Shown in pieces: positions 16,062-27,793 of a stretch of DNA of 32,313 nucleotides (positions are counted from its first letter, which is position 1; every line of letters begins with the position of its first letter). The stretch is from an uncultured Flavobacteriales bacterium (GTDB lineage: Bacteria; Bacteroidota; Bacteroidia; Flavobacteriales_E; Vicingaceae), in NCBI GenBank assembly GCA_965369165.1, contig CBDUPT010000001.1:1-32313 (forward strand). Direction: 5' to 3'. Both the position numbers and the translations under genes were made by a program. Under the pieces are notes generated by a model. That model had not been told where the DNA came from, searched no databases, and saw nothing but the letters and a program-made list of their open reading frames with translations.

Positions 16062-16847
16062 TTGGTGTTTAAAAGTCTAATTTCGTTTAATCTAAAACCT
16101 AAAGGTAATATCACAATCCATTTGAGAACATTTATCATTTTCGGCAGTTTGTTTTTGCTCATGTTAAATACATGTGATGCTCAAGAATGGAAAAATTTAA
16201 GGCAATATAAAAAAGAAACAGGAAGTAAGTCGCTTAATGATGGTTGTTGGTTAAAAAAAGATAGAACGAAGCAGAGTGAGGTTTGGAGAGCAGCAAACAA
16301 ATATAACTTACAACAAGAAAAAGGTTTTGAGAAATATGAAAGCATTACTCAAATACGAGATTTTTATTTTTGGTTTGATAGTGAGCGAATAAAACAAGGT
16401 CACGAAATAAAATGGATAGGAATTGCTGGCGTTGCAGCAAATCAACTATCTAAAATTGATGTTGGCATTATTCGTTTTTTATTGGTTAGAAACCAAGAGA
16501 TTGTGAAATTTGCAAATGAAGGTTCAAAAAAAGTATTGCAATTTGCTTTCCCGCTTTTAAAAGCACTTTATTTTTCAGGCAAAGTTATTAAAGGTGAAGC
16601 CGCTAAAGAGTGGGAAGTAACCTATGGCAAAAAAGAGCAATGCAAAATTCTTCAACCAATATATGATGAGTTATCTCCGAAAGCAATGAAAAAGTTAGAA
16701 CGAATGGCAAAAGGAAAAGGCTTGTTTTGTTTTGGTGTACCTAAACAATTAAAATATAAAGGGAAAATTGAAGATTGCCAAGCTAGGTATGAGCATGGAT
16801 TAAATGAATTGATTCCTTATTATTTGTTAAAGCATAGAAATCAATAA
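16062..16847 (+). CDS. Hypothetical secreted protein or lipoprotein (family not recognised)
   Basis: The ORF opens with a TTG start. Its hydrophobic signal-like segment FIIFGSLFLLMLNTCDAQ would be lost if the first ATG (MLNTC) were used, so the start is uncertain. No motif was recognised. Confidence 0.5.
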   Translation: MVFKSLISFNLKPKGNITIHLRTFIIFGSLFLLMLNTCDAQEWKNLRQYKKETGSKSLNDGCWLKKDRTKQSEVWRAANKYNLQQEKGFEKYESITQIRDFYFWFDSERIKQGHEIKWIGIAGVAANQLSKIDVGIIRFLLVRNQEIVKFANEGSKKVLQFAFPLLKALYFSGKVIKGEAAKEWEVTYGKKEQCKILQPIYDELSPKAMKKLERMAKGKGLFCFGVPKQLKYKGKIEDCQARYEHGLNELIPYYLLKHRNQ

Positions 16848-17060: not shown

Positions 17061-17912
17061 ATGAACTCAATTGAATTTTTACAAAAACTAAGTGAATCTG
17101 ATTTATCTAAAATTGGACATAGAAAAATTATAAATCATATCAAACAAAATATTCCTATTCCAATATTAACTACTATAATTAAAAAAGGAACCCCCATTTT
17201 TCGAGGGAGAACAGAGGAAAATATAAAATCCTTTAATAATGAATTTGAAATATCCTATAGAACTGATTTTGCTAACATCAAAGAATATGGGAGGTCTAAT
17301 AGACCTTATCAATCCGTTTTTTATGGATCTGTTCCTGAATCAAAAAATGATTATGCCCCAATAACCCTTTTAACTGAAATTCTTCCTGATTTTTTTGAGG
17401 ATGAGAAGCCTGTTAATAATAAACACATAACTATTGGCTTGTGGATAGCAAAAAAAGATTTTGAAGTTGCTGACATATGTTATAGCAAAGATTATAATCA
17501 TAACCCATTAATGATTGAAAAACAAAAGCTTTGGAATAAAAAACTAAAAGAAGAATATAGTGATAGTGTAAATAATTATAAAGATACCTTAGAGTTTATA
17601 TCGAATCAGTTCTCCAAAAAAAACATTAAAGACCATTGGGACTACAAATTATCCTCTGTTTTCTTTGACATAATTCAACAGAAAAATATTCATGGAGTTT
17701 TATACCCAAGTGTAAAACGGGATTTTGAAGGCTTGAACTTAAGTTTAACTCATGAAGTTGTCGATGAATTCTTAGAGCTTAAAAGTGTTAGTGTACACGA
17801 ATTGTCGAAGGAAAGAAAAAAAATCTATCCAATTCTTTTTTCAGATGATTTAGGGTTTATGAATTCAAATTTTCAATGGGAAAAAGTAGTTGCTGAAACG
17901 AGTTCTAAATAA
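17061..17912 (+). CDS. RES domain-containing protein (NAD+-degrading toxin family)
   Basis: The three RES blocks appear in order. The R block is YGRSNRPYQSVFYGS, the E block is APITLLTEIL, and the S block is HGVLYPSVKRDFEGLNLSL. Confidence 0.7.
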   Translation: MNSIEFLQKLSESDLSKIGHRKIINHIKQNIPIPILTTIIKKGTPIFRGRTEENIKSFNNEFEISYRTDFANIKEYGRSNRPYQSVFYGSVPESKNDYAPITLLTEILPDFFEDEKPVNNKHITIGLWIAKKDFEVADICYSKDYNHNPLMIEKQKLWNKKLKEEYSDSVNNYKDTLEFISNQFSKKNIKDHWDYKLSSVFFDIIQQKNIHGVLYPSVKRDFEGLNLSLTHEVVDEFLELKSVSVHELSKERKKIYPILFSDDLGFMNSNFQWEKVVAETSSK

Positions 17913-17920
17913 CTTTTTCA

Positions 17921-20900
17921 TCAATAATTCAAACTAGCACTCACCCATTTTTCAGCTTCATCAAAAGTTAAATTACTTGCATCCGCATAAGCTTGTACTT
18001 GGTCTTTTTCAATTTTACCTACTCCAAAATATTTAGCTTCTTCATTACCAAAATACATTCCGCTAACTGCTGCAGTTGGGTACATGGCTAAGCTTTCTGT
18101 TAAGCTAACCCCTGTTAATTCTTGGGCATTTAAAATTTTAAACAACTCCGTTTTTAAGGTATGGTTCGGACAAGCAGGGTAACCTGGTGCTGGTCGTATG
18201 CCTTTGTAACTTTCTTTTATTAATTCTTCGTTAGTTAGATTTTCAGCAGTATCATACCCCCAAAACTCTTTACGCACTTTTTCGTGCATTAATTCTGCAA
18301 AAGCTTCTGCTAATCTATCAGCTAATGCTTTTATCATAATAGAATTATAATCATCATGGTCGGCTTCAAAACGTGCAATATGCTCTTCAATTCCGTGTCC
18401 GGTGGTTACTACAAAGCCACCAATATAATCTGTTTTACCTGTTTCTTTTGGAGCAAGAAAATCTGCTAAACTAATATTTAAAGCTGCTTTAGCTTTTTTA
18501 CTTTGTTGTCTTAATTGGTGTAATTGAGTTATTTTAGTTCCGTTTTCATAAACTTCAATTGTATCATCATTTACGGTATTAGCTTCCCAAATTCCAATTA
18601 CAGCTTTGGCAATTAACCAATTCTCATCAATAATCTGTTGTAGCATTTTTTGAGCATCGTTAAATACTTTTGTTGCTTCAGCACCAACTACATCATCGGT
18701 TAAAATGTTAGGGTATTTTCCCGCTAGCTCCCAAGTTCTAAAAAACGGAGTCCAATCAATGTAAGTCGCAATTTCTTCTAAACTGTAATTCTCAAATTGT
18801 TTGGTGCCTAATAAGTTTGGTTTTGTGATTTTACTTGTTTCCCAATCAATTTGATATTTATTAGCTCTAGCTCCTTCTAGCGAAAGCATTTCTTTACGAA
18901 CTTGTTTGTTGTTGTAATGTGTTCTTACAGTATCGTACTCTGTCTTTAATGCTTTAACGTATTCTGTTTTTTTATCGCTTAATAAACTATCTGCAACAGT
19001 TACCGAACGCGAAGCATCTAACACATAAACTGCTTGTCCTTTTGTGTAATGTTCTTCAATTTTTACCGCAGTATGAACTTTAGAAGTTGTTGCTCCACCT
19101 ATTAATAGAGGAATAGAAAAATCTCCACGTTCCATTTCTTTGGCAACGTTGACCATCTCATCTAACGAAGGTGTAATTAACCCAGATAGACCAATTAAAT
19201 CAACATTTTCTTCTTTGGCTACTCTCAAAATTTCCTCACAAGGAACCATTACCCCCAAATCAATTACCTCATAATTGTTACAGCCTAAAACAACCCCAAC
19301 TATGTTTTTACCAATATCATGCACATCTCCTTTTACAGTTGCGAGTAATACTTTTCCGTTATTCTCTTTAGCCCCTCCAGACCTCCCCGAAGGGGTGGCT
19401 TCTGTAACATCTTGCCTTTGATTAACTTCACGCAAAATTGAATCTAAAGTGTTATCTGTATCTGCTAAAACTTGCTCATTACTATAACGAATTACTTTAA
19501 ATTCTTTTTCTTCTAACCACTCTGTTCTAACACTATCTCTTTCTTTATTTTCTGGTAGTTGGTGAATTTTACCATCTATTTCAACTATCAACCTTCTTTT
19601 CAAACAAACAAAATCGGCAATATATTGACCGATAATATGCTGTCTTCTAAACTTAAATCCTTCTAACTTTTTATTTCGTAGCAATTCCCACATTGCTTTT
19701 TCTGCTTCGGTAGGATTAGCTTTTTGTTCTTTTGCAAACTCTTTCAATTTTCCATATAGCATCACATCTGCTGTACGAAAACTATCAAAAGCCCCTCCTT
19801 CGGAGGGGTTGGGGAGGCTTTTTTTAGCCTCTTCAATATATGGGAGAAGATATGCAACAGCTTTTTTCATTACCCTTGCAGATTTTACTACTTGAGGCAA
19901 AAACATTTTCCCAGAACCAAATAAATCACCAACCACACCCATTCCATTCATTAGATATTCTTCAATAACTTGTAAAGGCCTATCAACAATTAAACGAGCT
20001 TCTTCCGCATCTTCTTCAATAAAATCAGCATTTCCTTTTACTAATCCGTGAGTAATTCTTTCTTGTAAAGTTCCTTTACGCCACTCTAAATCTAGCTTTT
20101 GCTCTTTAACCGTTCCTTTTACATTGTCAGCATAATCTAACAAACGCTCAGTTGCATCATCCGTTCTGTCCAATAAAACATCTTCAACTTTATCTAATAA
20201 TTCTTTAGGAATATCACTGTAAACCTCTAACATTTCTGGGTTTACAATTCCCATATCCATTCCTTCTTTAATGGCGTGATATAGAAATGCTGAGTGCATT
20301 GCCTCACGAACAGTATTGTTTCCTCTAAAAGAAAAAGAAGCATTACTTACGCCTCCACTTATGTGAGCTCCTGGTAAATTTTCACGAATCCATCGTGTTG
20401 CTAAAAAGAAATCTAGGGCATTTCTTCTATGTTCTTCCATTCCTGTTGCCACAGGAAAAATATTAGGATCAAAAATGATGTCTTGTGGAGGAAAACCTAC
20501 TTTATCTACTAAGATCCGATACGATTTTTCGCAAATTTCTATTCTTCTTTCATAAGTATCAGCTTGCCCTTGTTCATCGAATGCCATCACAATAACTGCT
20601 GCTCCATATCTTAAAATGGTTTTAGCTTGCTCAATAAATTGTTCTTCTCCCTCTTTTAAACTGATAGAGTTTACCACACATTTACCTTGAGCATTTTTTA
20701 ATCCAGCCTCAATAATTTCCCATTTACTGGAATCTATCATTATTGGCACTCGGCAAATATCTGGTTCGGCAGCAACCAACTTTAAAAAGTTAATCATGGC
20801 TTCTTTTCCATCAATTAAACCATCATCCATATTAATGTCAATGATTTGTGCTCCACCTTCTACTTGCTGACGAGCAATGCTCAATGCTTCTTCAAATTGT

Positions 20901-21076
20901 TTTTCGTTAATTAAACGCAAAAACTTTTTAGAACCAGCAACATTTGTACGCTCACCTATATTAATAAAGTTGACTTCTGGTGTTACAACCAATGGTTCTA
21001 ATCCACTCAACTTCATGTAAGGAATATCCTTCCACTTGTATTCGTAATCTCCTGTATAATCTGGGTGTAAACTCAT
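17921..21076 (-). CDS. metH: Methionine synthase, cobalamin-dependent: pterin-binding + cap + B12-binding + AdoMet-activation domains, carrying a DUF559 insertion
   Basis: It is collinear with E. coli MetH from LSGLEPL onward. Shared motifs are [60 protein letters not shown] and [11 protein letters not shown]. About 150 residues (S420-A569) have no MetH counterpart. Confidence 0.95.
19370..19400. repeat. Downstream (3', gene-sense) end of the cassette: GC-rich quasi-palindrome
   Basis: The plus strand reads agcccctccagacctccccgaaggggtggct, which is 22 of 31 nt G+C in an AT-rich window. It contains the cccc-gaag-gggg hairpin. It starts with the 9-mer agcccctcc that is also found at 19790. Confidence 0.75.
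19790..19819. repeat. Upstream (5', gene-sense) end of the cassette: GC-rich quasi-palindrome
   Basis: The plus strand reads agcccctccttcggaggggttggggaggct. It contains the perfect hairpin cccctcc-ttc-ggagggg. Like the other end, it starts with agcccctcc and ends with ggct. Confidence 0.75.
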
Positions 21077-21078
21077 GC

Positions 21079-22068
21079 TTAATTATTTTTTGGAGAATAG
21101 TTTGATGCCAAATCGGCAATTGCTTTAATGTGCTCAGGAGTTGTTCCACAACAACCTCCAACTATATTTACTAAACCTTCATCTAAAAAGGTTTTTATTT
21201 GTTCAGCCATAAATTCAGGAGTTTCATCATAAGCTCCCATCTCATTAGGTAAACCAGCATTTGGATGTGCACTCACCAAACAGCTTGATTTTTCTCTAAT
21301 AGTTTTCAGATATGGGCGTAAAGCTTCAGCTCCTAATGCACAGTTTAAACCTATGCTTAATGGTTTTGAATGTTCAACTGAAATAACAAATGCTTCTGTA
21401 TTTTGTCCGGATAAAGTTCTACCACTTGCATCAGTAATTGTTCCTGAAATCATAATGGGTAAATCTGTTCCTTTTTCTTGTTGAATTTCATCAATTGCAA
21501 ACAATGCAGCTTTTGCGTTTAAGGTATCTGTAATGGTTTCTACTAACAATAAATCTGCTCCACCATCAATTAAACCAGAAGCTTGTTCTTTAAAAGCATC
21601 TACCAATTCATCAAAACTAATGTTTCTAAAACCAGGGTCATTTACATCTGGAGACATAGAAGCTAATTTGGTTGTTGGCCCCATAGAACCTGCTACAAAA
21701 CGAGGTTTGTTTGGCTCTTTTGCTGTAAACTCATTAGCTACTTCTTTTGCAATTTTTGCCGATTGATAGTTAATATCATAAACAGCTGAAGCTAATTCAT
21801 AATCATCTTGTGCTACCCATGTTCCACCAAAAGAATTGGTTTCGGCTATATCAGCTCCTGCTGCATAATATTCAGCATGAATGCTTTTAATGATATCTGG
21901 TCTGGTAATAGAAAGTAAATCGTTATTCCCTTTTAAAGAACATGGATGGTCTTTAAAACGTTCACCACGAAAGTCTTCTTCAGTTAGTTGATGCCTTTGA
22001 ATCATAGTTCCCATAGCACCATCCAACACCAAAATTCTTTCTTTTAATATATCTCTAATATTTGCCAT
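21079..22068 (-). CDS. Homocysteine S-methyltransferase domain protein (N-terminal module of split MetH)
   Basis: It starts [24 protein letters not shown]. The Zn-ligand motifs are GLNCALG and [11 protein letters not shown]. Its TAA lies 2 nt before the metH ATG. The 72 codons upstream in the track ORF overlap a riboswitch and terminator and were discarded. Confidence 0.9.
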
Positions 22069-22120: not shown

Positions 22121-22248
22121 CTACTTATCTTTTTCCGATTAAACGGAATAGGATTTAGCACCGGTTTTCCAATCCCGCACATGCGGGACTTATAGTTGGT
22201 TGCCAAAGCTTCACAGGGCCTAATCCCTCCACTTTTCTTGATAAGCAC
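22121..22248 (-). promoter_or_regulatory. SAM-I (S-box) riboswitch aptamer
   Basis: In gene sense it reads gCTTATCAAGAaaaGTGGAGGGAttaGGCCCtgTGAAGctttGGCAACC...ccGGTGCTAAATCCtattccgtttaatcggaaaaAGATAAGtag. This matches the conserved S-box core, with P1 formed by cttatc/gataag, and has an extended P3. Confidence 0.85.
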
Positions 22249-24077: not shown

Positions 24078-24866
24078 ATGAAAAAATTATTTTTCGTCTT
24101 ATTAATTTCACTTTTCGCATTGCATGTAAATGCAACTGGAGTTATTGTGTTAGAAGGGCATTACCAAGGTAAAAACTTATACGTTCAAAATCCTTTTGCG
24201 GGTAGTGGGGTAGGATTTTGTACTTTCGAAGTAACTATAAATGGAGAAGTAACTACTGATGAAGTTAACTCTAGTGCTTTCGAAATTGATTTTGCAAATT
24301 TCCAATTAAAGGTTGGAGATCCTGTTATAGTAAAGATAAAGCATAAAGATGATTGTAAACCTAAAGTTTTAAATCCTGAAGTTTTAAAACCAAAAAGTAC
24401 TTTCGAAATTGTTTCAATGAAAATATCTAAAGAAGGAAACTTTGATTGGGTAACAAAAAACGAAACAGGAAAGTTAACTTTTATTGTAGAGCAATTTAGA
24501 TGGAATAAGTGGATTAAAGTAGGTGAGGTTGATGGAAATGGAACTTCTGCTGAAAATACTTATGATTTTAAAATTACTCCTCACTCAGGTGAAAACAAAT
24601 TTAGAGTAAAACAAATTGATTATTCTGGTAAGCCAAGATATTCTCAAGCATCTAGATATATCTCTCCAGTAGGTGAGATTACTTTTAGCCCTATTAAAGT
24701 AAAAGACATTATTAACTTTACTGGCGAAACTTTATTTGAAGTTTATGATAGTTATGCTAACATCGTGAAAAAAGGATATGGTGGAAAAGTAGATGTAACT
24801 AACCTTAAAAAAGGTATCTACTACTTAAATTATGATAACAAAACTGAAACTTTTGTAAAGAAGTAA
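24078..24866 (+). CDS. Secreted protein with a T9SS type A C-terminal sorting domain
   Basis: It has a signal peptide. The C-terminal segment FEVYDSYANIVKKGYGGKVDVTNLKKGIYYLNYDNKTETFVKK resembles Por secretion-tail domains. The passenger domain was not recognised. Confidence 0.6.
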   Translation: MKKLFFVLLISLFALHVNATGVIVLEGHYQGKNLYVQNPFAGSGVGFCTFEVTINGEVTTDEVNSSAFEIDFANFQLKVGDPVIVKIKHKDDCKPKVLNPEVLKPKSTFEIVSMKISKEGNFDWVTKNETGKLTFIVEQFRWNKWIKVGEVDGNGTSAENTYDFKITPHSGENKFRVKQIDYSGKPRYSQASRYISPVGEITFSPIKVKDIINFTGETLFEVYDSYANIVKKGYGGKVDVTNLKKGIYYLNYDNKTETFVKK

Positions 24867-27719: not shown

Positions 27720-27793
27720 GGGCCTATAGCTCAGCTGGTTAGAGCACCTGACTCATAATCAGGGGGTCCAAGGTTCGAGTCCTTGTGGGCCCA
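27720..27793 (+). tRNA. tRNA with anticodon CAT (elongator Met, or Ile2 if lysidine-modified)
   Basis: The cloverleaf folds by hand. The acceptor stem is gggccta/tgggccc, the D arm is agctcagctggttagagc, the anticodon arm is cctga-ctCATaa-tcagg (CAT at 27754-27756), and the T arm is caagg-ttcgagt-ccttg. The discriminator is A and CCA is not encoded. Confidence 0.9.

Follow-up and report, generated by a model that had tools for sequence, protein, structure and literature searches.

An in-frame DUF559 nuclease insert with hairpin-forming ends in the cap-to-B12 linker of a bacterial methionine synthase

The metH locus and its insert

Encoded on the reverse strand of the 32,313-nucleotide (nt) stretch of DNA analysed here (the window; contig CBDUPT010000001.1, positions 1–32,313, from an uncultured Flavobacteriales bacterium of the Vicingaceae) is the methionine synthase MetH, and lying in frame between its cap and cobalamin (B12)-binding domains is a nuclease domain of the DUF559 family with a hairpin unit on either side (Table 1). 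The gene is a single unbroken open reading frame (ORF) of 1,051 residues in the ORF listing of the window. Pterin, cap, B12 (DxHxxG) and activation domains follow one another in the order expected of MetH, with H586 in a GDVHDIG motif; Pfam sets the cap, DUF559 and B12 domains between Pterin_bind (residues 41–279) and Met_synt_B12 (residues 766–1032), and the match to the NCBIfam metH model TIGR02082 comes in two stretches, with the break at residues 419/568. Aligned with the structure of Escherichia coli MetH (PDB 1BMT), residues 331–419 correspond to chain residues 3–91 and residues 571–719 to chain residues 94–242, so that about 151 residues replace two of the E. coli enzyme between cap and B12 domain.

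An earlier reading of this stretch, made without database searches (the sequence-only reading), had described the protein as collinear with E. coli MetH apart from the insert; this holds from the pterin domain on, but the homocysteine-binding domain is a separate upstream ORF. The positions it gave were exact (S420 at 19817–19819, A569 at 19370–19372, and likewise M439 and H586), and the reading frame does continue straight into the B12 domain without a stop codon. Its interpretation of the in-frame nuclease insert is largely borne out; it missed the GC-rich terminal repeats, a pair of hairpins that code for the linkers.

The DUF559 domain claimed for the insert is complete, with a strong match to PF04480 over profile positions 2–108 of 109 (E = 3.1e-36, 124 bits against a cut-off of 20.6), and the insert alone matches the DUF559 crystal structure PDB 3HRL with E = 1.4e-18. 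The NCBIfam model PRK09767 is matched below its equivalog cut-off, and the insert is therefore not considered an orthologue of E. coli YcjD. Residue conservation was computed over 151 DUF559 homologues, including 35 copies from the cap site of MetH. All of the invariant or nearly invariant residues (T456, E459, W463, R478, Q479, H480, D488, E499, D501, H505, D514, R517, R530 and N533) are present in the window copy. Conservation of H480 and H505 is 0.99 over the 151 homologues and 1.0 in the MetH-embedded copies; in the 35 cap-site copies the listed residues are 100% conserved except N533 (0.97), as in free-standing copies. The acidic/histidine core of DUF559 (D in xDF; E-x-D-G-x-x-H; D..R) is complete with D488, E499, D501, H505, D514 and R517, all invariant but H505, and from these residues the nuclease is predicted to be catalytically intact. 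Between the cassettes of two Aquimarina species, the ratio of non-synonymous to synonymous substitution rates (dN/dS) is about 0.05–0.08 with synonymous sites saturated, and that of the flanking metH is 0.012. The window MetH is 91.7% identical over 902 residues to its orthologue in Vicingus serpentipes (L005), and purifying selection on the host gene (dN/dS in Table 1) suggests that MetH activity is retained despite the insert.

An AlphaFold2 model built with a 103-sequence alignment has a mean predicted local distance difference test (pLDDT) score of 89.6, which drops below 50 only at model residues 96–103 and 230–240, that is, at the hairpin-encoded peptides (MetH residues 425–432 and 559–569). 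Foldseek matches the model both to 1BMT (cap and B12 domains) and to 3HRL (template modelling (TM) score of 0.89 and r.m.s.d. of 2.2 Å over 99 columns). The predicted product is MetH with an independently folded nuclease domain held on two disordered tethers at the hinge; the sequence-only reading had suggested a structure prediction to see whether the domain extrudes there. Against the PADLOC defence models only a marginal match was obtained (E = 7e-4), and membership of a defence system was rejected.

Terminal units A and B differ in state. The unit A hairpin is the only strong GC hairpin of its type in the 32 kb (ΔG of −10.6 kcal/mol, z = −2.45), and that of unit B is slightly decayed (CCACCCC against CCTCCCC in the family consensus, which was derived from doublets) and folds weakly (z = −0.38). 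The arms of the terminal inverted repeats (19381–19404 and 19786–19809) are 79% complementary, and the repeats are clearer in four other copies (L004, L224, L237 and L244). The cassette ends have a GC content of 67–70% against 32% for the genome, and the nuclease core is host-like in GC and in third-position GC (GC3). As read from its sequence, the consensus hairpin unit is free of stop codons in all six frames and yields peptides such as SPSFGGVGE. The repeat GGAGGGGCT has only two matches in the window, where 0.08 are expected, and loss of the DNA between the pair would result in a solo unit A, still in frame. All other MetH cassettes have the same layout, with stems that vary by lineage yet remain complementary, and a 3′ junction that is mostly ...GGAG followed by K(I/V)L(L/M)ATVKGD. 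Very probably, the 450-bp segment represents one copy of a small, hairpin-bounded DUF559 cassette that is read through in frame.

A 13-nt imperfect direct repeat, TGRAGRGGCTAAA (TG(A/G)AG(A/G)GGCTAAA), lies in host sequence just before the cassette (19823–19835) and again across its 3′ end (19367–19379); it may stem from microhomology or target mimicry at integration. An assembly chimera was rejected: the arrangement recurs in many independent assemblies including isolates, such as Rufibacter sp. XAAS-G3-1.

Table 1. Features of the metH region (window coordinates)
Feature	Position	Strand	Evidence or remark
Whole in-frame insertion, 150 codons (S420–A569): hairpin unit A, DUF559 ORF, hairpin unit B	19370..19819	−	Absent from the closest orthologues L005, L006 and L008
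DUF559/Vsr-like PD-(D/E)xK endonuclease domain, MetH residues 443–551	19424..19750	−	PF04480; 3HRL by sequence and fold
5′ terminal unit A, AGCCTCCCCAACCCCTCCGAAGGAGGGGCT, GC 0.70	19790..19819	−	Sequence reading; identical 29-mer at the same site in L014
Perfect 7-bp hairpin CCCCTCC-GAA-GGAGGGG, then CTTTTG; terminator-like in sense orientation	19792..19808	−	Hairpin scan, folding
3′ terminal unit B, CCACCCCTTCGGGGAGGTCTGGAGGGGCT	19370..19398	−	Imperfect inverted repeat of unit A
9-bp direct repeat GGAGGGGCT; partner at 19790–19798, 420 nt (140 codons) apart	19370..19378	−	Repeat count
Host gene metH (pterin, cap, B12 and activation domains)	17921..21076	−	TIGR02082, 1198 bits (cut-off 1011); dN/dS 0.05 versus Vicingus orthologue
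MetH cap domain (B12-binding_2), directly upstream of the insert	19847..20068	−	PF02607, residues 337–410; 1BMT alignment
Cobalamin-binding Rossmann domain, GDVHDIG motif (His586)	19082..19357	−	PF02310, residues 574–665; 1BMT alignment
Separate homocysteine-binding-domain ORF of MetH; likely start M73 of the listed ORF	21079..22068	−	PF02574, E = 7.6e-100; S-adenosylmethionine (SAM) riboswitch upstream of start

The split of metH falls between the stop codon of the homocysteine-binding-domain ORF (21079–21081) and the start of the pterin-to-activation ORF at 21076, 2 nt on; the closest relatives align from residue 1 of the second ORF, and the split therefore seems common to them. The first of these ORFs, listed with a TTG start and 401 residues, is over-extended and likely starts at 22068. 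Directly 5′ of it is a SAM-I riboswitch (RF00162, 75 bits, 22122–22247, reverse strand), which points to SAM regulation of the metH operon. Converging on the 3′ end of metH is a 283-residue ORF (17061–17912, forward strand) that has no Pfam match, as have the ORFs at 16062–16847 and 24078–24866. A tRNA gene (RF00005, 73 bits) lies at 27720–27793 on the forward strand, and the remainder of the window is ordinary Flavobacteriales chromosome, with genes for PorP/SprF of the type IX secretion system, CHU_C, pyruvate kinase, asnS and hybrid histidine kinases.

Occupancy of the linker among MetH orthologues

Scanning the MetH protein against one genome per species gave 80 orthologous loci. The linker contains a DUF559 domain in five of them and a remnant in one (L014), and the other 74, including a scar-like case (L036), are without the domain, a presence/absence polymorphism at one site of the kind by which homing genes are recognized. 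Filled linkers belong to two Aquimarina species (L001, L002), a Rufibacter and two Bacteroidetes metagenome-assembled genomes (MAGs). The insertion-free alleles for which the sequence-only reading had proposed a search exist in the closest orthologues, all from Vicingaceae: the nearest relative, V. serpentipes, has an E. coli-like linker free of any scar, and two further loci (L006, L008) are likewise empty and unscarred. Filled, scarred and cassette-free alleles occur within the single genus Aquimarina, where the scar of L036 (about 30 nt) matches the outer ends of the Aquimarina cassette. At the same place in a Flavobacteriales MAG (L014) is an 87-nt remnant whose 5′ 29-mer is identical to that of the window and whose 3′ end is nearly so; it retains the first cassette codons (SYEMAE; SYEMAD in P0122), and the nuclease is gone.

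The empty Vicingus allele and the window MetH share 95% identity in the B12 domain. The nearest relatives of the window's cassette are 68% identical to it, and the MetH proteins that carry them are 74–79% identical in the B12 domain. The cassette is judged from these alleles to have reached the metH linker after the split from Vicingus-like relatives.

A search with the segment from cap through insert to B12 domain brought up no fewer than 35 protein clusters that have DUF559 between the two host domains. They come from Lutibacter, Flavisolibacter, Raineya, Ignavibacteria and Bacteroidetes, and their annotation goes no further than 'DUF559 domain-containing protein' or 'methionine synthase'. 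Most MetH-resident DUF559 domains fall together in a neighbour-joining tree, with the copies from the activation domain as one clade inside; a few linker copies (L004, L038 and P0129/143/145) lie elsewhere. The identity between pairs of DUF559 domains correlates only moderately with that between the B12 domains next to them (r = 0.47, Mantel p about 0.0005). We read this as one tolerant linker that was probably colonized several times, with vertical descent and repeated decay thereafter.

Several records show a 'fractured' metH, split at the cassette (P0001, P0007, P0029, P0144 and P0153); these were put down to assemblies rich in frameshifts, to a scaffold gap or to a mis-join that may have occurred at the repeat. 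In L230 (positions 1–340) no cap or pterin sequence precedes an ORF of DUF559, B12 and activation domains; the cause may be a genuine rearrangement or a mis-join made by the assembler at the hairpin repeat.

The cassette and its hairpin units at other sites

Close relatives of the nuclease also stand free among co-oriented housekeeping genes, between pta and ackA, between two capsule epimerase genes and after sucC, and a further copy, after argS, is fused N-terminally to RNase H. In these copies unit A lies just past the upstream stop codon and a unit B-type hairpin 3′ of the DUF559 ORF, the exception being the sucC-adjacent copy (L229) with unit B only; in the pta–ackA and capsule-gene copies unit B comes directly before the next start codon. 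Cassettes lie in frame in the activation and homocysteine-binding domains of MetH, in MetG, Type ISP restriction enzymes, an alpha/beta hydrolase, CinA and GDP-mannose dehydratase. At one site in the Type ISP enzymes the cassette is complete in L094 and L132 and reduced to a doublet remnant in L135; L094 also has, in frame and 5′ of its DUF559, three tandem repeats of unit plus spacer (ERTSxxPPKEGLSxxGYITD). Of 17 independent cassettes, 16 have a perfect C-rich hairpin no more than 170 nt away, a frequency that falls to 0.4% in random windows.

An exhaustive search of 1.84 billion representative proteins returned 23,312 relatives of the DUF559 domain, counted as clusters at 50% identity. Among the best 150 of these were 140 new representatives, 59 of them at least 300 residues long, and these long proteins carry 88 Pfam families, including SpoIIE phosphatases, class I tRNA synthetases, chorismate synthase and DegT aminotransferases. 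The top match, P0241 (377 residues), has three tandem DUF559 domains. Three small free-standing DUF559 proteins (P0040, P0046 and P0055; 123–152 residues) are named '5-methyltetrahydrofolate--homocysteine methyltransferase' by the Joint Genome Institute (JGI), probably through annotation transfer from MetH::DUF559 chimeras in reference sets.

Viral contigs contain 121 DUF559 relatives, nearly all 30–45% identical and one at 52%, which disfavours phages as the main vector, though some of these contigs have hairpins. In two of them (L237 and L244, GC about 0.65) distant DUF559 genes lie between perfect inverted hairpins, CCCCTCTCCC-TGACGC-GGGAGAGGGG and CCCCTCTCCC-GCGTCA-GGGAGAGGGG. From these high-GC cases we infer that the link between nuclease and hairpin extends past Bacteroidota.

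Far more numerous are hairpin units without the nuclease. The sequence-only reading had asked whether the cassette ends have other copies, and the core of unit A does recur, at no fewer than 120 metagenome loci and in 15 viral contigs, with a conserved motif that runs past the searched pattern. Among the matches listed, only four of 138 hairpin-unit instances have DUF559 nearby. The ORF-less forms comprise doublets of 85–125 nt (unit A, AT-rich spacer, unit B), tight A+B pairs and tandem arrays; such derivatives with the same ends were seen at other loci as doublets (L087, L090, L105, L193 and L195) and as the remnants L014 and L135. In L163 (positions 286–390) unit A stands three times in tandem with a 34-nt period, and L141 has two adjacent copies.

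Inside long ORFs are 38 of the 138 listed units, 24 in sense and 14 in antisense orientation. In the subset tested, Pfam confirmed PurL, UvrA, IspG and primases as genes that carry antisense units. For sense units it confirmed the Type ISP enzymes and MetG, and the hosts IleS, PolA, an NrdJ-like reductase and a GH3 glycosidase were recognized from translated sequences only. One phage primase carries a solo unit, and a RarA-like gene has, at one site, a doublet in L188 and a solo unit in L153. Like Rickettsia palindromic elements, the units are short palindromic repeats that lie in frame in many unrelated genes.

Origin of the insert and relation to known systems

We favour, with a probability of roughly 0.6, the interpretation that a selfish nuclease cassette has settled in the metH linker, where it would be translated as a passenger and from which it would spread in a homing-like manner. 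Such a cassette would consist of unit A, a DUF559 nuclease ORF of about 115 codons and unit B in roughly inverted orientation, and would have landed in metH in a suitable orientation and frame at a flexible linker. Owing to the lack of stop codons in all six frames of the hairpin units, the ribosome is expected to read through the insert; the units would be translated into disordered tethers rich in Pro, Gly and Ser, and MetH would be made with the nuclease off the hinge, no splicing being needed. The nuclease would stay catalytically intact because the element relies on it. The enzyme would break or nick DNA at cassette-free or hairpin-bearing targets, with recombinational repair copying the element in, as in homing; to this step of the scheme we assign somewhat less than even odds. 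Internal deletions would then produce doublet and solo hairpin footprints. The homing-like route is favoured by the kinship of the family with Vsr-like homing endonucleases, with which DUF559 has been grouped (PMC3424549, PMC2677866), by the clustering of MetH copies by site, and by the occurrence of free copies in operons, like phage homing genes; the partial co-divergence of DUF559 domain and host gene is a further hint. The cassette interpretation as a whole draws on gain and loss at the linker, the recurrence of its architecture at other sites, the conserved nuclease core, the predicted structure and the selection seen on metH. In a hybrid of the two routes considered here, the nuclease gene would home into pre-existing hairpin doublets.

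Several observations weigh against this interpretation. Homing endonuclease genes normally lack terminal inverted repeats. Compared with the Vicingus allele, no co-conversion tract is visible beside the insert, only the linker window dipping to 73% nucleotide identity, and the 5′ junction shifts by up to about 12 codons among lineages. The unit A hairpin resembles an intrinsic terminator inside metH, a cost to the host; the decay of the 3′ hairpin means that the metH copy may no longer be mobile, and within the 32-kb window there is no second copy of either cassette end. As 14 of the 38 intragenic units are antisense in real genes, solo units are not all footprints of in-frame cassettes. Translation, nuclease activity and mobility of the cassette are themselves predictions.

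The main competing account is that the hairpins are mobile ends cut by DUF559, as in a transposon or a system of repetitive extragenic palindromic (REP) sequences and REP-associated tyrosine transposases (RAYTs), with the cassette moved in cis, solo and doublet hairpins in trans, and MetH merely one tolerated site. It would explain the imperfect terminal inverted repeats on the cassettes examined, with their lineage-specific complementary stems (CCCCTCC/GGAGGGG, CCCCC/GGGGG, TCTCTCCC/GGGAGAGA and CCCCTCTCC/GGAGAGGGG), as well as the ORF-less doublets with the same ends, the tight A+B doublets and the three-copy tandem array, the antisense solo units in PurL, UvrA, IspG and primases, the excess of units with no DUF559 near them and the very broad range of host genes. 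The window junctions, however, have no clear target-site duplication, just the 13-nt imperfect direct repeat. A recognized transposase (DDE, HUH, Ser or Tyr) is lacking, the only ORF being a PD-(D/E)xK nuclease, and a 110-residue nuclease of this fold is not known to carry out strand transfer alone. MetH-resident copies cluster by site, which is unexpected for a promiscuous transposon, and L014 illustrates that internal deletion of a cassette suffices to make a doublet. We regard this account as unlikely. Somewhat easier to accept, and still tentative, is the broader proposal that DUF559 nuclease and hairpin units together make up an unrecognized kind of mobile element in prokaryotes, with a PD-(D/E)xK enzyme as its driver and a REP/RAYT-like organization. 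Evolution would have freed its ends of stop codons in all six frames and made them code for Pro/Gly linkers, which would let it colonize coding sequence directly, and its nuclease would be expressed only as a passenger of essential host proteins (MetH, MetG, other tRNA synthetases and restriction enzymes). Such an element would represent a third lifestyle for an intragenic selfish nuclease, beside introns and inteins.

That the fusion has instead been domesticated, with the nuclease now of use to its host (Vsr-like mismatch repair or defence, for instance) and MetH as expression platform or regulatory partner, is improbable. Strong purifying selection on embedded copies with intact catalytic residues, long residence in Aquimarina with saturated synonymous sites, the host-like base composition of the core and a Caulobacter DUF559 protein that behaves as a Vsr-like enzyme (PMC12907096) would all fit domestication; set against them are a sporadic distribution with loss and scars inside one genus, the presence of the cassette in dozens of unrelated host proteins and intergenic sites, nearest relatives that manage without it, and the weak match to defence models. 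An ancient, vertically inherited MetH domain with many losses could account for a linker filled in both Bacteroidota and Ignavibacteria and for the partial co-divergence of DUF559 domain and host gene, but 74 of the 80 species representatives are without the insert, orthologues 92% identical have a scar-free E. coli-like linker, several unrelated DUF559 lineages hold the site, junctions vary by lineage and the cassette exists outside MetH, all of which make that origin very improbable. Least credible of all is removal of the segment as an intein, a self-splicing intron or by translational bypass, or its origin as an assembly artefact. The insert does start with Ser and has strong hairpins at both ends, and inteins and group I introns with Vsr-like nucleases have been described (PMC2677866). 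Pfam finds no Hint or intein domain, though, and outside DUF559 there are just about 40 residues, predicted to be disordered, where Hint blocks would take about 130 residues or more; the C-terminal junction reads ...GGA followed by K570, not HN followed by C, S or T, a motif equally missing from 36 other insert-bearing MetH proteins. With neither space nor signature for an intein, the sequence-only reading was right to exclude intein chemistry. An Rfam scan at gathering thresholds found no group I or II intron, its matches in the window being the SAM riboswitch and the tRNA, and a self-splicing intron or other structured RNA in the insert was rejected. The frame is intact across both junctions in six cases at the DNA level and in about 35 protein clusters, and such conservation would not be selected were the segment excised.

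If the selfish-cassette interpretation holds, a selfish nuclease can persist in an essential gene with no splicing machinery, by bringing its own flexible linkers and settling at a surface hinge. This would extend the range of gene-invading elements past introns, inteins and free-standing nucleases that split genes. It would also give a biological context to the large DUF559 family (about 23,000 clusters at 50% identity, for which almost no functional literature was found), and would explain odd Pro/Gly-rich inserts in housekeeping proteins of Bacteroidota and the naming of free-standing DUF559 proteins as methionine synthase. The cap-to-B12 hinge of MetH would be a natural experiment in how much extra mass is tolerable there, relevant to recent structural work on its conformational cycling, and the occupied positions would offer protein engineering a set of naturally validated domain-insertion sites and linkers.

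In literature outside subscription-only sources, neither DUF559 cassettes nor their hairpin ends nor an insertion of this kind in MetH was found described; the fusion itself is recurrent across Bacteroidota and Ignavibacteria and has been in databases unremarked. It appears that MetH::DUF559 proteins are already recorded there unexplained and that the broader element family is unrecognized.

Among known systems, Vsr-like (EDxHD) homing endonuclease genes occur both free-standing and as gene invaders (Dassa et al. 2009, PMC2677866; I-Bth0305I, PMC3239194). Their nuclease is small, as in the cassette, and of the Vsr/PD-(D/E)xK fold, which PMC3424549 groups with DUF559; also shared are sporadic occurrence in conserved genes or between operon genes and a pattern of gain, decay and loss. 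Those genes sit in a split intein, a group I intron or a gene broken in two, whereas the MetH nuclease is in frame in its host protein and has hairpin terminal inverted repeats; no match at the sequence level was found between the insert and 3R3P. In the ShiLan domain, a non-splicing homing insertion tolerated in frame in a phage DNA methylase (PMC11855218), the host frame is likewise stop-free, intein and intron features are missing, a loop-out is predicted and a homing nuclease is associated. ShiLan is phage-borne, encodes its HNH nuclease in a frame other than that of the host and has no hairpin repeats, whereas DUF559 lies in the host frame on a bacterial chromosome.

The comparison with Rickettsia palindromic elements, drawn by the sequence-only reading, stands for the hairpin ends: as solo and doublet units these are short palindromes in frame in many housekeeping genes, and tolerated there. 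It fails in that the Rickettsia elements carry no gene, whereas some members here hold a complete nuclease ORF, and the sequences are unrelated and the hosts are Bacteroidota. With REP/REPIN–RAYT systems and miniature inverted-repeat transposable elements (MITEs) the cassette shares a gene between inverted hairpins, ORF-less singlets and doublets that are far commoner than the gene-bearing form, and co-variation of repeat and enzyme lineage; it differs in having a PD-(D/E)xK nuclease rather than an HUH or DDE transposase, in that no target-site duplication was demonstrated here, and, as REPs are extragenic, in that its hairpin units often lie within coding sequence. Like inteins with a homing endonuclease, it is an in-frame selfish nuclease insertion inside a conserved enzyme, and unlike them it has no Hint splicing domain and no splice-junction residues, so that the insert must stay in mature MetH. 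By their defining features the element is not an intein, an intron or a classical transposon; it is one that combines a DUF559 nuclease, polymorphic occupancy of its site and palindromic repeats in frame with their host genes.

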